Virus record (IMG/VR): IMGVR_UViG_2529292920_000018
Span: 1 to 64,000 of that record
Source of the DNA: a virus
Lineage: Duplodnaviria; Heunggongvirae; Uroviricota; Caudoviricetes
DNA length: 64,000 nt
Strand: one strand, 5' to 3'
Part shown: piece by piece, positions 3,138 through 27,450 of the stretch
Layout: each line of letters starts with the position of its first letter
How positions within the stretch are numbered: the stretch's first letter is position 1
Position numbers and translations under genes: made by a program
Notes under the pieces: model-generated
Seen by the model: the letters and a program-made list of their open reading frames with translations, nothing else
What the model was told of the DNA's origin: nothing
Database searches by the model: none

Positions 3138-4233
3138 CAGACACTCCAGTCATGTTAAGAGTGATTGCCGTACAGTTTGCCCATTCGTTTTCTGCCACCA
3201 CCCGCAGTGCCGGTGTCACCAGTTCAACCTGGTACACCCCGGAAACGGACAATGCACTGATAATCTGGCTGGGGACAATATCGCGCCCCAGCGTGGCGGC
3301 ACGTGATGCCACCCAGTTCTGTATGGCGCTGTTAGCGGCATCTTTTACAGACCTGGCATCCTGATCACGATAGATCGTAATCTTGGCTTCAATGGTGTAA
3401 TCCACCTTCACTGGTGTTTTAGCCCGCACTGTATCAGTGAGTGGCCTGACTTTCTCATCAGAGCAGAAACTCTCTACCAGCGTGAGAACACCGCCGTCCG
3501 GCAGACCGGTACTGAGCAGCGGATACAGATCTACGGTCCCGGGAACCGGGGAAAGCACAGCAACATCGACAATGTTGGGATGGGCCTGCATGGCATGAAA
3601 GCGGTATGCGCCACGGCTTCCGGCATTGGTGAATGACTCCGGGGCCAGCCTGATACGCTCCCGGAGCCTGTCATCGTCTTCCTGTTCTGAACCGCCGGAA
3701 CTGGCCGTCAGATTGCTCACCAGCAGGTCGACGTTATCAATCTCATCGAGTAACTGACTGACCTGCGCAGGTTGCCAGCCGTTACCAGCGGTACCGGGTT
3801 CGGTACAGGTGGACGTGACATTGACCAGCAGCAATCCGGCCTTCAGTACCACATCTGTATCGGTGGCAAAAATAACGCTGTCGGAAGCGCTGACGCGGGT
3901 GCCTGCCGGGATCAGCACATCAATGGCCAGTGCCTCATCTACGGAGAACTGGAGCGTGGTAGTGGCAGGCTGCGCGGCAAGACGGTATACACCGACCAGT
4001 TCACCGAGGTAATCAATCATCGGCTCACGGGCAAAGGCGACCAGATTCTGCTTTGCTGCCTCCTGTACCGCAACCCTGACCAGCATTTCGCGATAGGCCC
4101 ACAGATCAATCAGCAGACGTTCTGCCTGTGCCGGGTACAGCGTTTTGCCGGTATCCGCTTCATACTTCGCAATCATTTCTGCCGTGATTTTGTCGGCATC
4201 GCGTTCAATAAAATCGGGTTCTGTCAGCGCCAT
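3130..4233 (-). CDS. Baseplate J-like protein (Mu gp47-like)
   Basis: 367 aa; synteny and resemblance to the J-like protein at 45883-46791. Confidence 0.75.
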   Translation of the reverse strand: MALTEPDFIERDADKITAEMIAKYEADTGKTLYPAQAERLLIDLWAYREMLVRVAVQEAAKQNLVAFAREPMIDYLGELVGVYRLAAQPATTTLQFSVDEALAIDVLIPAGTRVSASDSVIFATDTDVVLKAGLLLVNVTSTCTEPGTAGNGWQPAQVSQLLDEIDNVDLLVSNLTASSGGSEQEDDDRLRERIRLAPESFTNAGSRGAYRFHAMQAHPNIVDVAVLSPVPGTVDLYPLLSTGLPDGGVLTLVESFCSDEKVRPLTDTVRAKTPVKVDYTIEAKITIYRDQDARSVKDAANSAIQNWVASRAATLGRDIVPSQIISALSVSGVYQVELVTPALRVVAENEWANCTAITLNMTGVSDD

Positions 4234-23936: not shown

Positions 23937-24287
23937 TTAAAGCCCCATCGCAACAGCCAGGCAGACCGCTGCAACAATCAGTGCACGGCGGATTAACGCA
24001 GCAGAAAACACCAGGTGAAGGCCGGTCTGTACCGGGAAACGCCCTTCAGCCATCAGCCTGTCGTCATGTTTCAGGTACTGACCGGGACGGGCTTTGGGGA
24101 AGAGCGAACGGTCAAGCCAGTAACCCAGCACTGCTGCCAGCGTGATGAGTGCCAGCTTGTAGATCACAACAGGCAGCTGCTGTGGTGAGACCAGAGCGAT
24201 GGTGCCCAGCAACAGCACTGAGGTCAGCAGCCAGCCGCTGAGGCGAGGTTTTTTAACAGGGGGAATGAATTTTTTCAGGTTTTTCAT
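23937..24287 (-). CDS. Holin-like membrane protein
   Basis: About three TM helices; start at MKNLKKF with AAGGAGA upstream; directly upstream of endolysin. Confidence 0.5.
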   Translation of the reverse strand: MKNLKKFIPPVKKPRLSGWLLTSVLLLGTIALVSPQQLPVVIYKLALITLAAVLGYWLDRSLFPKARPGQYLKHDDRLMAEGRFPVQTGLHLVFSAALIRRALIVAAVCLAVAMGL

Positions 24288-24417
24288 GTGTGTCTCCTTA
24301 TCTGGTGGAGACAGCATCACAAATACAGGGCGCGAAGGATTTTAAAGCGCGTTAAGAGAGCCGGGGATACGGGATGTGCAGGATAAACGATGAATTATTC
24401 ACAGAGGAGAATACGAT

Positions 24418-25146
24418 ATGACGCAGACACTGAATCCGGTCATCACTGTCACCGTGTCCGGTCCTGTGGGCAGCGGTAAAAGTTACATATTGGCGCGAAT
24501 AGAGGAAGTGGTGAAACAGGAATTCGGAAACAGCGTCATTGTCGACGCCGCAGACGTGGACGGTGAGCGCCGTATGAGTGGGGATGATCTGAGCACATGG
24601 CAGAAACCACGGGCTGGCACAGTGATCAGGCTGGAGGAATACACGGGACAGGGCCTGTTGTCATACGGCGAGGAGCGTATCTGTCGGACGAATGAGCTGC
24701 TGGATGTTATATGCCCCACGGGCCGGCAACCCTGGATACTGCCCGATGCACTGCATGCCACCATTGCGGCACTGATGACAGTTTACGATCAGGAGCTGCT
24801 CATGAAGGAGTTACGTAAACTCACTGGTCAGTCAACAGAATGTTGTTCGTCCCCGAAGTACGGCAAACAGGAACACATCCCGATTAACCAGCCTCCCCGG
24901 TTCTTCGACGAATACCTTCTGACACCGGAAAATAAAGCTGAGCATGAAGAGATCAAAGCGGCGTTGTTCCGGGAAATCAGGAAGATTGCTGAAATGCAAC
25001 TGGAGGGCGGGCTGGACAGAGTGATGGCGAGAGGAGAATGGGCATCGCTGTTTGAAAGAGTTTCCCCGGAATTACTTCCCCTCGCACTGGCTATCGGGAT
25101 TATGCAGACAGCGGATAAACCTCACTTACGTTCATTAAACACGTAA
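24418..25146 (+). CDS. P-loop NTPase of unknown function
   Basis: Walker A GPVGSGKS at residues 15-22; no further recognisable family. Confidence 0.5.
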   Translation: MTQTLNPVITVTVSGPVGSGKSYILARIEEVVKQEFGNSVIVDAADVDGERRMSGDDLSTWQKPRAGTVIRLEEYTGQGLLSYGEERICRTNELLDVICPTGRQPWILPDALHATIAALMTVYDQELLMKELRKLTGQSTECCSSPKYGKQEHIPINQPPRFFDEYLLTPENKAEHEEIKAALFREIRKIAEMQLEGGLDRVMARGEWASLFERVSPELLPLALAIGIMQTADKPHLRSLNT

Positions 25147-25526
25147 CGCATAATCCGGGATACGCATTCAGCGATGACTGCATTTTCACCGGTTTTTACT
25201 GCATCCAGAAGTGACTCTTTAAATGGTACGGGCCGGGGCTGCAGAAAGGTCGGCATGGCATTGAGCAGACAGAGCGTTTTTTCCGTGAGGACGACATCAG
25301 CCGCTCCCACAGCCAGCAACTGAGAGTAACGAATATAGCTGTTATCCCGAAGCCATATCAGCGTATCAATAAAACACCGGCACTTTTTCTGGTCGTGATC
25401 AACCTGGTCCGGGATATCGAAAAAACCAGAATAAATCAAAACCTGAGGTGCCGGATGCGTGTTCAGTAATCGGCAGAATATTTTGCCGGTGAGTACATAA
25501 AAATCATCATTTAAGGAGTGCATCAT
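25122..25526 (-). CDS. Hypothetical protein
   Basis: 134-aa ORF convergent with the P-loop gene; start codon overlaps that of the divergent ORF at 25525. Confidence 0.35.
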   Translation of the reverse strand: MMHSLNDDFYVLTGKIFCRLLNTHPAPQVLIYSGFFDIPDQVDHDQKKCRCFIDTLIWLRDNSYIRYSQLLAVGAADVVLTEKTLCLLNAMPTFLQPRPVPFKESLLDAVKTGENAVIAECVSRIMRYVFNERK

Positions 25527-25740
25527 GAATCCCCGATTAACGTTAACAGAACATCAGCGCCGTGCTGAAGCAGTGAACAATGTTCTGGAAGATATTATCC
25601 GGTTATACCGCGGAGAACTGAGTGTCTGTCGTGCCGCTTTTCATTTTCAGGGAATACAAAAGCAGTTTGATACTTCTGTTTTTGCAGAAGGTATTACTTA
25701 TGCCCTGGACCGGATAAGGTCAGAAAATCGCCCCGGATAA
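25525..25740 (+). CDS. Hypothetical small protein
   Basis: 71-aa ORF with AAGGAG 6 nt upstream of ATG. Confidence 0.4.
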   Translation: MNPRLTLTEHQRRAEAVNNVLEDIIRLYRGELSVCRAAFHFQGIQKQFDTSVFAEGITYALDRIRSENRPG

Positions 25741-25794
25741 TCCCTAAACCACATTAACAGAAATCCCGCCATCCCTGCCGCATCATGAAAGAAC

Positions 25795-25826
25795 GACCAG
25801 CCCGGCACCCGAAAGCCGGGCTGGTC
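25795..25826. other. Perfect 12-bp stem-loop (stem gaccagcccggc, loop acccgaaa)
   Basis: Read directly; no U-tract on either strand, so function (terminator, RNA stability or other) is unclear. Confidence 0.35.
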
Positions 25827-25930
25827 ATCGCCCCACAGGAATGCGCTGTGAGCCGACCAAGGTTCAGTCAGTCTCGCGAGACCTGACCAGACTGCCATAT
25901 TTTTTAATAATTGTAAAAGGCTTACAGATT

Positions 25931-26695
25931 ATGAAAATGCAGACATTACCCATCGTGCCGTGGATTGGTGGCAAACGCCGCCTTGCAAAACACATTCTGC
26001 CGCTGTTTCCGGCGCATGAATGTTATGTGGAGCCGTTTTGTGGGGCAGCAGCGCTCTATTTTCTTAAGACACCCGGCAAGATCGAAGTCATCAATGATAT
26101 CAACGGTGAACTGGTGAATCTGTACCGGGTGGTAAAGCATCACCTGGAAGAATTTGTCCGCCAGTTCAAATGGGCGCTGGTCAGCCGTCAGATCTACAAA
26201 TGGCTGCAGATCACCCCGGAAGAAACACTGACGGATATCCAGCGTGCGGCACGGTTCTACTACCTTCAGAAGCAGGCGTTTGGCGGCAAGGTGGCAGAGC
26301 ACAGCTTCGGTACCTCCACCACATCCCCGCCACGCTTCAACCTGCTACGTATTGAAGAAGAACTGTCAGCGGCACACCTGCGGCTTTCCAGAACAGTCAT
26401 AGAACACATGGACTGGCAACAGTGCATTGAGCGTTATGATCGTCCGCACACGCTGTTCTACTGCGACCCACCGTACCTGGGTACGGAAGGCTATGGTGTG
26501 GATTTTCCTGAAGGGAACTACTCGCGGCTGGCAGAGCTGGCCCGGTGCATCAGAGGAAAAATGATAATTTCGGTGAACGACATCCCGCAGATGCGCGAGG
26601 TGTTCACTGGACTGAACATACAGACAGTGAATATCAACTACAGTCTGGCGGGTAAACCCACGCCGCGCCGTGAACTGCTAATCTGCAACTTCTGA
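25931..26695 (+). CDS. dam: DNA adenine methyltransferase (Dam family)
   Basis: N-terminal WIGGKRR and catalytic DPPY motifs. Confidence 0.8.
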   Translation: MKMQTLPIVPWIGGKRRLAKHILPLFPAHECYVEPFCGAAALYFLKTPGKIEVINDINGELVNLYRVVKHHLEEFVRQFKWALVSRQIYKWLQITPEETLTDIQRAARFYYLQKQAFGGKVAEHSFGTSTTSPPRFNLLRIEEELSAAHLRLSRTVIEHMDWQQCIERYDRPHTLFYCDPPYLGTEGYGVDFPEGNYSRLAELARCIRGKMIISVNDIPQMREVFTGLNIQTVNINYSLAGKPTPRRELLICNF

Positions 26696-26700
26696 AACAA

Positions 26701-26727
26701 AACCGGAAAGCACAATGCTTTCCGGTA
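26701..26727 (-). terminator. Rho-independent terminator downstream of the repressor gene
   Basis: 10-bp stem ccggaaagca/tgctttccgg followed on the minus strand by TTTTGTTT. Confidence 0.5.
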
Positions 26728-26811
26728 AACCAAACAACTTCCACTATGTCACTGGCGATGTTTTCTGAAAGCATCCAGATCAACCACCTGTCCTTTGTGT
26801 CCGGGTCAGTA

Positions 26812-27168
26812 TCAGCCTGCGATTTTTCCTGGTTTTGGCTGAGTATAGAATCGCCCAATCTCAAGAAATGAGCGTTGTTGGTCTGGTGTCATGTCGTCAA
26901 AAGTATCTATTAGTTTTTGTTTTTCTGGGGAAATTTGATTCTGGTTTCTAGTCATACCATCTGTGCTCATTCCAGTGAGCAACCAATTTACATCAACATT
27001 AAACTCTTGATGCATCTTTAACAGAAACTCCCCTCCAGGCATCGCCTTTCCATTTTCAATCTGACTGATACCACCATTAGAAATACCTAAACGAGCTGCA
27101 AATTCTCTCTGGTTCAACCCTGCTTTCTTCCTCACAGAAATAACGCGCTCTCCTATATCTTTGCTCAT
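26812..27168 (-). CDS. Phage repressor, XRE-family helix-turn-helix
   Basis: HTH motif LNQREFAARLGISNGGISQIENGK; divergent from the ner-like gene. Confidence 0.7.
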   Translation of the reverse strand: MSKDIGERVISVRKKAGLNQREFAARLGISNGGISQIENGKAMPGGEFLLKMHQEFNVDVNWLLTGMSTDGMTRNQNQISPEKQKLIDTFDDMTPDQQRSFLEIGRFYTQPKPGKIAG

Positions 27169-27191
27169 AAAAGTGAATCTCTATCTTGATA

Positions 27192-27209
27192 TGCTCATAA
27201 TTATGAGCA
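27192..27209. promoter_or_regulatory. Operator-like 18-bp perfect palindrome in the divergent repressor/ner promoter region
   Basis: tgctcataattatgagca is its own reverse complement; 24 bp from the repressor start, 53 bp from the ner start. Confidence 0.5.
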
Positions 27210-27261
27210 ATAATCTAACACATATAAGGCAAACATCATTGCATCAACAAAGGAGACAACG

Positions 27262-27450
27262 ATGACTGCAGAACAAGTCAAAGCTCTCTTCCGCCAGCGC
27301 GGGATCACTTTCACCCGCTGGGCAGAAGAAAACGGCTACAACCGCAATGAGGTATACCGCGTTCTCAACGGGCAGACCAAAGCCCGTTACGGTAAATCCC
27401 ATGAAATCGCCGTGAAGTTGGGACTGAAATCAACAGCTCAGGCGGCCTAA
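27262..27450 (+). CDS. ner: Ner-like DNA-binding protein
   Basis: 62 aa; first gene of the early operon; RBS AAGGAG. Confidence 0.7.
   Translation: MTAEQVKALFRQRGITFTRWAEENGYNRNEVYRVLNGQTKARYGKSHEIAVKLGLKSTAQAA

Follow-up and report, generated by a model that had tools for sequence, protein, structure and literature searches.

The interval between the lysis cassette and the repressor gene of an Escherichia coli prophage, studied here in a viral stretch of 64,000 nucleotides (IMG/VR record IMGVR_UViG_2529292920_000018, positions 1 to 64,000; hereafter the window), is a layered variable slot and not a single module, as judged by comparison with related genomes. Its backbone, which includes a hairpin and a DNA methyltransferase gene, carries a mobile cargo of three interleaved genes encoding 242, 134 and 71 amino acids (aa). 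By the same comparisons, the latter two genes form a conserved two-gene cassette that is mobile among BcepMu-like, P2-like and lambda-like prophages, and in which the two reading frames are arranged head to head with their ATG codons overlapping in the tetranucleotide CATG. We put at roughly even odds (a probability of about 0.5) the full reading of this slot, in which the cassette is a self-contained unit of mutually exclusive expression with a role in phage conflict.

The prophage is, by sequence, a BcepMu-like transposable prophage of the EC958 Phi2 / PhiKM type from E. coli sequence type 131 (ST131). Over 2.7 kb, the region shares 99.9% identity with Escherichia phage PhiKM (genus Bcepmuvirus), the gene order of prophage Phi2 in strain EC958 matches that of the window, and the 134-aa protein (WP_000972294.1) and the methylase (WP_000783854.1) are identical RefSeq proteins in Phi2. 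An earlier note on this DNA had described an accessory island of a Mu-like prophage; a variable slot between the lysis and repressor genes is indeed present, more precisely in a BcepMu-like phage, and the three unknown open reading frames (ORFs), the hairpin and the methylase lie where that note placed them according to both the ORF list and the raw sequence. The region was found in 635 of 5426 complete E. coli genomes (~12%), and 481 of the 635 carried at least 80% of it with all three cargo ORFs intact.

The extent of the cargo was delimited by blastn against Klebsiella phage KP12 (L002) and phage Phi06_2974B (L003), which gave breakpoints at 24354/24358 and 25785/25786; only positions 24200-24358 and 25785-26697 of the window are shared with these two phages. 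In Phi06_2974B, the empty-site relative, approximately 33 bp lie between the two flanks, while in KP12 a DUF2441 gene replaces the cargo, and both phages keep the hairpin and the methylase at ~80% identity. Because these two elements persist in relatives with an empty site or an alternative cargo, they belong to the enterobacterial BcepMu-like backbone. Thus, the stem-loop that the earlier note had counted as part of the island does possess a perfect 12-bp stem, but it is not part of the cargo. In BcepMu itself, the slot between the repressor and the holin harbors different genes (gp18-gp20) and no methylase. Between the window and a further copy of the region (L006, NZ_CP054662.1), the synonymous divergence (dS) is 0.46 for the methylase gene and 0-0.13 for the cargo genes, and this discordance indicates that the cargo was exchanged far more recently than the backbone diverged. 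The slot has been seen empty, with DUF2441, with an alternative three-gene content and in extended variants; presence or absence and replacement between conserved flanks, together with the sharing of cargo by unrelated phages, are what is expected of a moron or hotspot cargo.

Two of these variants show how the slot is built. An E. coli variant of the same prophage (L004, NZ_CP059281.1, 7219-9849, equivalent to the window from 24418 on) keeps only the first 683 bp, at the end of which lies a standalone 158-aa P-loop N-terminus annotated as 'ABC transporter ATPase'. The rest of its slot holds two unknown genes on the minus strand, for proteins of 193 and 328 aa, together with a different helix-turn-helix (HTH) repressor that is longer (153 aa), and there is no methylase; its replacement genes and repressor had no Pfam or PADLOC match except weak HTH matches. 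In L006 (3556-4400), an extra minus-strand gene for a 126-aa protein, which had no Pfam or PADLOC match, lies between the hairpin and the methylase and is bounded on both sides by copies of a ~163-bp segment equivalent to window positions 25824-25986, suggesting insertion by recombination at that spot.

The 134-aa protein (phrog_2266, 2.6e-44) belongs to a large family. An exhaustive profile search recovered 195 cluster representatives at E<=1e-3, nearly all of 125-155 aa and matching over their full length, with the consensus NIExFNxxtGxIFAxLYExFPvP...FxxTvxWLxxxGYI...vVLTxKGLevLkaxPxSL...G..l..a.K.G. In P2-like phages, tblastn identified 143-aa homologues, ~31% identical, in Midge, ST147-VIM1phi7.1 and FSL SP-004, and these copies sit at the equivalent of P2 hotspot 1 (PMC9122126, Rousset 2022; PMC9519451, Vassallo 2022), with the gpA replication endonuclease gene on one side and the portal gene or the end of the genome on the other. 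In all three, a divergent ORF of 63-64 aa overlaps the start by the same two bases. A Serratia BcepMu-like prophage encodes a 139-aa homologue and a 73-aa partner across a CATGATG junction, and an Arsenophonus P2-like phage-plasmid carries the pair at a further genomic position, near Cox/C. A scan of IMG/VR returned 54 loci, of which 52 were informative, and all of these had a CATG-anchored divergent ORF, the call at L048 being aberrant; three distant single proteins searched in IMG/VR gave no loci.

The family extends well beyond these phages. A scan of GTDB species genomes with a sub-profile gave 34 loci, 33 of which were analysed; the hosts were mostly Pseudomonas, but also Pectobacterium, Pantoea, Vibrio, Campylobacter and others, and the neighbours were phage genes. 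In Pseudomonas, the large gene is found in reverse orientation between a lambda-type terminase gene (gpA) and a 68-aa ORF that is followed by the portal gene; this ORF has no Pfam match and appears to occupy the position of lambda gpW. Other sites in Pseudomonas and Pectobacterium adjoin tail tube and sheath genes, or a holin gene, and in Vibrio the large gene adjoins a Rha/ANT antirepressor gene. Among the 33 genome loci, a divergent partner of 72-83 aa starting at CATG was present in 13, and the large gene stood alone in 20; solo copies also occur in Vibrio and Helicobacter operons.

As the earlier note had recognized, there is no intergenic space for a promoter between the two divergent ORFs, since their ATG codons share two bases. 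The SD sequence of the 71-aa gene, AAGGAG, is a strong one. The 134-aa ORF reads MMHS..., with a second in-frame ATG at 25521-25523, and its GGGG motif, similar to a Shine-Dalgarno (SD) sequence, is spaced 4 nt from the first ATG and 7 nt from the second. Across representative pairs, an SD-like motif is present at these sites for the small gene in 25 of 27 and for the large gene in 19 of 27, and in the Pseudomonas pairs both motifs are GGAG. The CATG register is conserved although the flanking bases vary, and the alignment of the P2-like loci reaches its highest nucleotide identity, 0.92-0.95, between -15 and +60 relative to the junction. Because each ribosome-binding site (RBS) falls within the first five codons of the partner gene, each mRNA should start inside the opposite coding sequence, and the 5' ends of the two transcripts should be complementary over at least ~28 nt, including both RBSs.

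A search for inverted repeats also revealed an imperfect 18-bp palindrome inside the 134-aa gene, upstream of the 71-aa gene, which is a candidate operator. The palindrome also encodes the conserved peptide GKIFCRL, and a palindrome-like sequence is found at the same codons in Serratia (L010). As the palindrome coincides with the conserved GKIFCRL codons, it provides no independent evidence for an operator, and coding constraint alone may explain it.

Several observations suggest, with moderate confidence, that the large protein is probably a winged-helix protein, in which helix 3, the wing and the LTxKG motif are followed by a helical C-terminal extension. When the profile was trimmed to the first ~97 residues, the top PDB matches were the winged-helix proteins AspA, YjcQ and a MarR regulator (E 0.3-0.9), and all three alignments cover the same motif, comprising the recognition helix, the wing and LTxKG. 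In addition, the annotators of phage Midge listed the protein as a putative transcriptional regulator, with an HHpred match to a "T7 fusion protein 5.5/5.7" entry. The winged-helix assignment is based on the consistency of these PDB matches together with that note. A Pfam scan of 110 family members gave three unrelated single-member matches and no consistent family, and the UniRef name "DUF2513" of a Serratia homologue was not reproduced by Pfam.

The 71-aa partner (phrog_4490) is predicted to be helical and contains a single cysteine; it had no Pfam or PDB match. It shares 31% identity with the 73-aa Serratia partner (E 6e-11), and the profile of the Pseudomonas, Pectobacterium and Arsenophonus partners aligns with the E. 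coli/Serratia profile in hhalign at 75.7% probability (E 2.4e-5), without gaps over the motif MDxxRARxYW...L..EAL. Some variation within the family was observed. A plasmid of Arsenophonus nasoniae (paNv_UK11, L068, 2781-3837) carries the large gene flanked by two paralogous ~71-aa partner genes, one in the CATG head-to-head arrangement and the other convergent downstream, an arrangement that points to possible duplication of the small gene inside the cassette. The partners in Pseudomonas L074-L079 and L084 (ORFs ending near 3272) have a Cys/Arg-rich tail, such as ...PRCRCCRTS or ...PRCRCGRCCRTC, and this tail is confined to one Pseudomonas subgroup. Some metagenomic 71-aa variants are frameshifted.

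In the P2-like group (20 pairs with dS > 0.1), both genes are under purifying selection, with a median ratio of nonsynonymous to synonymous rates (dN/dS) of 0.075 in the large gene and 0.14 in its partner, and the 134-aa and 71-aa ORFs are accordingly real genes and not chance ORFs. The core of the cargo is thus a two-gene cassette which, in its general form, encodes a probable winged-helix protein of ~140 aa and a helical partner of ~70 aa, joined at the CATG overlap. We propose that the promoters of both genes would lie within each other's coding sequence, and that expression would be mutually exclusive, because transcription in the two directions would interfere and the RBSs would be masked by antisense RNA. 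The larger protein, as a probable winged helix, is likely to bind DNA at the junction and would thereby bias the choice between the two states. The large gene often occurs alone, so we infer an effector role for its product and a modulating one for the small partner. Face-to-face promoters are known from P2 (Pe/Pc) and 186 (pR/pL), where they are intergenic and control whole operons, and where a DNA-binding protein sets the state. The cassette would recall these switches by analogy, with divergent genes, overlapping transcript 5' ends and opposed transcription that would interfere, although it would do so in a form compressed to zero intergenic DNA, with the RBSs within the opposite gene and only two small genes involved.

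The larger protein may act in phage-phage or phage-host conflict, for example in exclusion, defence or counter-defence. This role is suggested by location, as homologues of the pair lie in P2 hotspot 1, in the BcepMu-like slot and as reverse inserts in late operons. The cargo is also dispensable in sister prophages and was recently exchanged, which are hallmarks of conflict or lysogenic-conversion cargo. The likeness to known hotspot cargo is close: the homologues of the pair occupy exactly the P2 locus that holds old/tin, between gpA and the portal gene, and the cassette of the window lies in a slot that is polymorphic for presence or absence between conserved genes. In contrast to hotspot systems, no cassette member matches a validated or candidate defence family of PADLOC 2.0, and start-codon overlap is not a described feature of such systems. 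Nor did any cargo protein match a known family of defence or anti-restriction proteins. Most defence systems discovered recently have come from the loci that the cassette occupies, which makes it a concrete candidate for functional screening.

That the three cargo proteins lack routine homologues, as the earlier note had also indicated, was confirmed by searches of Pfam, NCBIfam, PADLOC and PDB. RefSeq/PGAP labels all three as hypothetical proteins; each matches a PHROG family, and Pfam, NCBIfam, PADLOC and PHROGs assign no function to any of them. Sequence and profile searches of PDB gave nothing significant for any cargo protein, and PADLOC-DB 2.0 contained no match for the 134-aa and 71-aa proteins, for the P2-like, Arsenophonus-type and Pseudomonas-type relatives, or for the alternative cargos of the slot.

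A number of results weigh against a conflict cassette with mutually exclusive expression. The absence of a cargo match to any known defence family makes the conflict role a matter of guilt by location. Neither a promoter nor an operator emerged with confidence; a scan for sigma-70 promoters and terminators found nothing convincing at the junction, and as the total number of sites was no greater than in shuffled sequences, we name no promoter. The winged-helix matches in PDB are individually non-significant. AlphaFold2 models of the 134-aa protein (alignment of 9 close relatives, mean confidence score (pLDDT) 45.9) and of the 242-aa protein (16 close relatives, pLDDT 44.6) were unusable, and a Foldseek search with the low-confidence 134-aa model returned nothing (best E 4.5). 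The 63-aa partner of the P2-like phages, with its NNDLSSRE motif, has no detectable homology to the 71-aa family in hhalign (probability 0.1-3.4%). Finally, within E. coli the 134-aa gene differs by 0 synonymous and 8 nonsynonymous substitutions and the 71-aa gene by 2 and 5, respectively; as the E. coli substitutions are few and mostly nonsynonymous, purifying selection is evident in the relatives and not in this lineage.

We nevertheless rank the conflict reading, with modest confidence, above four others. The cassette may instead be a regulatory accessory of the prophage, such as an antirepressor, a modulator of induction, or an Aca-like autoregulator of a small anti-defence protein, which we regard as unlikely. 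A probable winged-helix DNA binder would suit such a role, and the cassette adjoins the repressor gene here and lies near Cox/C in Arsenophonus. Moreover, the small partner differs between subfamilies, as in the acr-aca logic of a conserved HTH gene and a variable small gene. However, acr-aca operons are co-directional, the solo copies of the large gene have no small gene to regulate, the cassette is dispensable in close relatives, as shown by the empty-site variant, and in Pseudomonas it lies inside structural modules, far from the immunity region.

A more elaborate version of the conflict reading is decidedly unlikely in our estimate: the cassette would be a widely mobile, minimal toggle based on mutual masking of the RBSs, which would keep to one state in the lysogen, and superinfection or induction would act as a trigger that releases the effector against competing phages or host defence. 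We consider it improbable that the pair is a toxin-antitoxin (TA)-like or abortive-infection system, in which a toxic effector of ~140 aa is restrained by the small partner, or the reverse, until infection releases it. In favour of such a system, the unit is compact, comprises just two genes and is carried by mobile elements at defence hotspots, and the tight coupling of its expression is reminiscent of type I TA systems with their mutual antisense control. Unlike type I toxins, however, the small proteins are hydrophilic, and a divergent arrangement is atypical of type II systems; neither Pfam nor PADLOC revealed a toxin or antitoxin domain, and co-occurrence of the two genes is not obligate. 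The large gene alone in 20 of 33 loci, as well as in the Vibrio and Helicobacter operons, is hard to fit to an obligatory antitoxin.

It is very improbable that the cargo is decaying junk, a recombination scar with ORFs that are non-functional in E. coli. Consistent with decay, the P-loop gene is chimeric and has several truncated or deleted forms, the E. coli substitutions in the 134-aa and 71-aa genes are mostly nonsynonymous, and frameshifted 71-aa variants exist in metagenomes. These points are outweighed in our ranking: the three ORFs are intact in the 481 genomes mentioned above, purifying selection is strong in the relatives, dN/dS is 0.32 in the N-terminal module of the P-loop gene, and the pairs share one overlap register and conserved SD motifs all the way from Pseudomonas to E. 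coli.

The reading of the earlier note, that the methylase and its unknown neighbours form one module for anti-restriction, self-protection in defence or methylation-dependent regulation of the small ORFs, has very little probability left and appears largely refuted by the comparative data: the genes are adjacent, the 71-aa gene and the methylase are co-oriented and the methylase has a weak match to PD-Lambda-5_B, but relatives that lack the cargo or carry a different one retain both the methylase and the hairpin, many prophages (P2-like, Arsenophonus, Pseudomonas) harbor the cargo pair with no methylase in its vicinity, the L004 variant keeps the P-loop N-module and lacks the methylase, dS is discordant, the best PADLOC match of the methylase is a generic type II enzyme, and the hairpin separates the 71-aa gene from the methylase.

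The third cargo gene, which encodes the 242-aa protein, is a chimera, since its N-module is a standalone gene elsewhere and its C-terminus matches a separate ~89-aa Serratia gene. In the Serratia BcepMu-like prophage this 89-aa gene (p89) lies at the same position, convergent with the gene for the 139-aa homologue and overlapping its 3' end, and residues 177-228 of the E. coli protein share 46% identity with p89 (E 3e-11). The relatives of the 242-aa protein comprise forms of 247, 242, 182, 158 and 141 aa; the 182-aa form is without residues 52-124, and the forms of 141-158 aa consist of the N-module alone and are labelled 'ABC transporter ATPase'. Walker A (residues 15-22) is invariant across 16 relatives, and dN/dS for the whole gene is 0.43.

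Matches of the 242-aa protein in Pfam, NCBIfam and PDB are limited to residues ~3-50 and are all below cutoffs. This part, predicted as a strand, Walker A, a helix and a strand (VIVDAAD), resembles the first ~48 residues of the nucleotide-binding domain of ABC-type or AAA P-loop nucleoside triphosphatases (NTPases). In contrast to those enzymes, the C-terminal third of the 242-aa protein comes from a separate gene. Its sequence contains no LSGGQ and no Q-loop or H-loop, with three strands only predicted; VIVD and VIRLEE are putative hhhhD/E motifs. Residues 52-124 are missing from natural variants and no family-level profile matched, which does not correspond to a complete P-loop NTPase core. 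The protein is therefore very unlikely to be a complete NTPase, as far as its sequence indicates, and probably binds nucleotides at most. It is not a routine nucleotide kinase either, a possibility that the earlier note had left for checking: the best kinase match was a guanylate kinase with a poor alignment (E 0.37-0.44), and PADLOC gave matches at the level of Walker A only (E >= 0.002). The label "P-loop protein" or "ABC transporter ATPase" thus reflects a Walker-A fragment fused to an unrelated gene.

The methylase of the backbone is an orphan D12-class N6-adenine DNA methyltransferase. It scores 102 bits against PF02086 (cutoff 22) and marginally passes TIGR00571 (116.6 bits, cutoff 114.85), and its translation contains the DPPY and FxGxA motifs (...FYCDPPYLGTEG... 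and ...VEPFCGAAALYF...). The earlier note had named it Dam; membership of the D12/TIGR00571 family stands, while the equivalog model for E. coli Dam (NF008152) was not reached (67 bits, cutoff 441). In PADLOC, the best match was the generic type II family MTase_II (6e-112), followed by the weak match to PD-Lambda-5_B (5.8e-16). Homologues with 60-66% identity are found in other Mu-like and Burkholderia phages such as B3, Curvibacter TJ1, Shewanella MuM16-1, phiE125 and KS9, and between the window and L006 the gene has a dN/dS of 0.08. A 1-nt indel upstream of 25931 relative to KP12 and Phi06 supports the start at 25931 and argues against the upstream ATG at 25841 that is used in the PhiKM record.

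As the same RefSeq protein is found in EC958 Phi2, the enzyme is M.EcoMIV (EC958_1101), which has been described as a prophage-borne orphan D12 enzyme with no recognition site assigned, is listed as putative type IIA in REBASE, and is transcribed at a low level in the lysogen (Forde et al., PMC4659465). It is conserved in ST131 clade C (PMC5654935). Because the Dam equivalog cutoff was missed and no site is assigned, GATC specificity is an assumption. The low transcription in the lysogen suggests that the methylase is probably made during lytic growth. Its likeness to E. coli Dam and to the Dam-family enzymes of phages lies in the D12 fold family, the catalytic DPPY motif and its orphan status, with no cognate nuclease. 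The "Dam" of this phage is thus corrected to an orphan methylase that lies outside any module with its neighbours and has already been published.

In the com-mom module of Mu, a small ORF and an RNA hairpin precede a DNA-modification gene. The window resembles this arrangement in having a small ORF and a hairpin upstream of a modification gene at the regulatory end of a Mu-type phage. It differs in that the methylase start, ~105 nt downstream of the hairpin, is not sequestered by it, and in that the 71-aa ORF belongs to the mobile cargo and not to the methylase. The analogy was rejected: the 71-aa protein has a single cysteine, no four-Cys zinc finger of the Com type and no Pfam match, and the hairpin is misplaced.

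The backbone hairpin is formed by GACCAGCCCGGC at 25795-25806, which pairs with GCCGGGCTGGTC at 25815-25826. Its predicted RNA folding energy (dG) is -40 kcal/mol on the minus strand and -31 on the plus strand, with a z-score of about -6, and 0 of 200 shuffled sequences folded equally well. On the minus strand, the RNA has a 15-bp stem counting wobble pairs, followed by the U-rich run 5'-GUUCUUUCAUGAUG, with five U in the 8 nt after the stem, and there is no U-tract on the plus strand. KP12 and Phi06 retain both the hairpin and its U-rich tail, and a compensatory change there preserves pairing at the top of the stem, where GGC/GCC is replaced by GGTG/CACC. A simple terminator scan did not call this hairpin. 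From these features, its most likely role is that of an intrinsic terminator, or of an insulator, acting on leftward transcription; it would then back up the canonical repressor terminator and protect the cargo and the late/lysis operon against read-through from that side. The gap between the methylase and repressor genes, which converge, holds the second hairpin, at 26702-26726 (dG -17.6 to -18.5 kcal/mol, z -4.7 to -6.1), and this hairpin is thus also 3' of the methylase on the plus strand. A proper U-tract is present only on the repressor (minus) strand, and the methylase transcript is therefore left with no obvious intrinsic terminator of its own. No Rfam match was found within 24000-27400.

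The features of the slot and its immediate neighbours are collected in Table 1. A 66-aa ORF at 25698-25898 on the minus strand covers the hairpin and extends over the 3' end of the 71-aa gene; this ORF is probably spurious, because it is not annotated in RefSeq and crosses the breakpoint between cargo and backbone. For the region 24200-26900, 712 matching places were found in the E. coli genomes, one of them on a plasmid and not on a chromosome, and some genomes hold up to three copies; the plasmid location and the multiple copies are consistent with an active transposable phage. By transfer of coordinates alone from EC958 (1005540-1007607), positions ~1-1800 of the window should start within the invertible tail-fibre segment of Phi2 (PMC4134206). 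Literature searches with the RefSeq accessions and EC958 locus tags of the three cargo genes and with DUF2513 yielded nothing relevant beyond the methylase papers.

Table 1. Features of the accessory slot and its flanks, in window coordinates.
Feature	Position	Strand	Remarks
Holin gene	23937-24320	-	Pfam Holin_2-3 at 1.5e-41
Stretch under study	24288-26811		Accessory slot, lysis cassette to repressor
Backbone control region	24321-24358	.	Divergent, upstream of holin/late operon; ends at left edge of cargo
Cargo insert	~24359-25784	.	~1.43 kb, three interleaved genes; missing from empty-site relatives
242-aa chimeric protein	24418-25146	+	Walker A GPVGSGKS; phrog_3787
Walker-A N-module	24418-24882	+	Residues 1 to ~155; standalone gene elsewhere
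Helical C-terminal domain	24946-25101	+	Residues ~177-228; like standalone 89-aa Serratia gene
134-aa ORF	25122-25526	-	3' end overlaps 242-aa ORF by 25 nt
Imperfect 18-bp palindrome	25471-25488	.	CGGCAGAATATTTTGCCG; candidate operator
SD sequence AAGGAG of 71-aa gene	25513-25518	+	6 nt before ATG, in codons 3-5 of 134-aa gene
CATG start-codon overlap	25524-25527	.	Two ATGs share 25525-25526
71-aa ORF	25525-25740	+	Divergent from 134-aa gene
GGGG SD-like motif of 134-aa gene	25531-25534	-	Inside codons 3-4 of 71-aa gene
Backbone hairpin	25795-25826	-	Perfect 12-bp stem, 8-nt loop
Orphan D12-class N6-adenine DNA methyltransferase	25931-26695	+	Pfam PF02086 MethyltransfD12, 6e-29
Intrinsic terminator of repressor gene	26702-26726	-	11-bp stem, then UUUUGUUU
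Prophage repressor, HTH_3 / CI-type	26812-27168	-	HTH_3 4.6e-15, Phage_CI_repr 1.8e-5; right-hand boundary of slot

What is genuinely new here, as far as the comparisons reach, is a widespread head-to-head cassette and with it an uncharacterised family of ~140-aa proteins with at least 195 clusters, and through this comparative work three "hypothetical proteins" have become defined objects. The large family behaves as a pan-prophage moron of BcepMu-like, P2-like and lambda-like prophages in Enterobacterales and Pseudomonas, and is also present in Vibrio and Campylobacterales. With a prevalence of ~12% in E. coli, including the pandemic ST131 clade C, the cargo is expressed or poised for expression in very many clinical strains. 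The invariant CATG overlap with mutually embedded RBSs is a rare and testable arrangement that could serve as a natural minimal switch, and the toggle, if true, would represent both a new family of anti-phage or counter-defence proteins and a new, extremely compact regulatory architecture.

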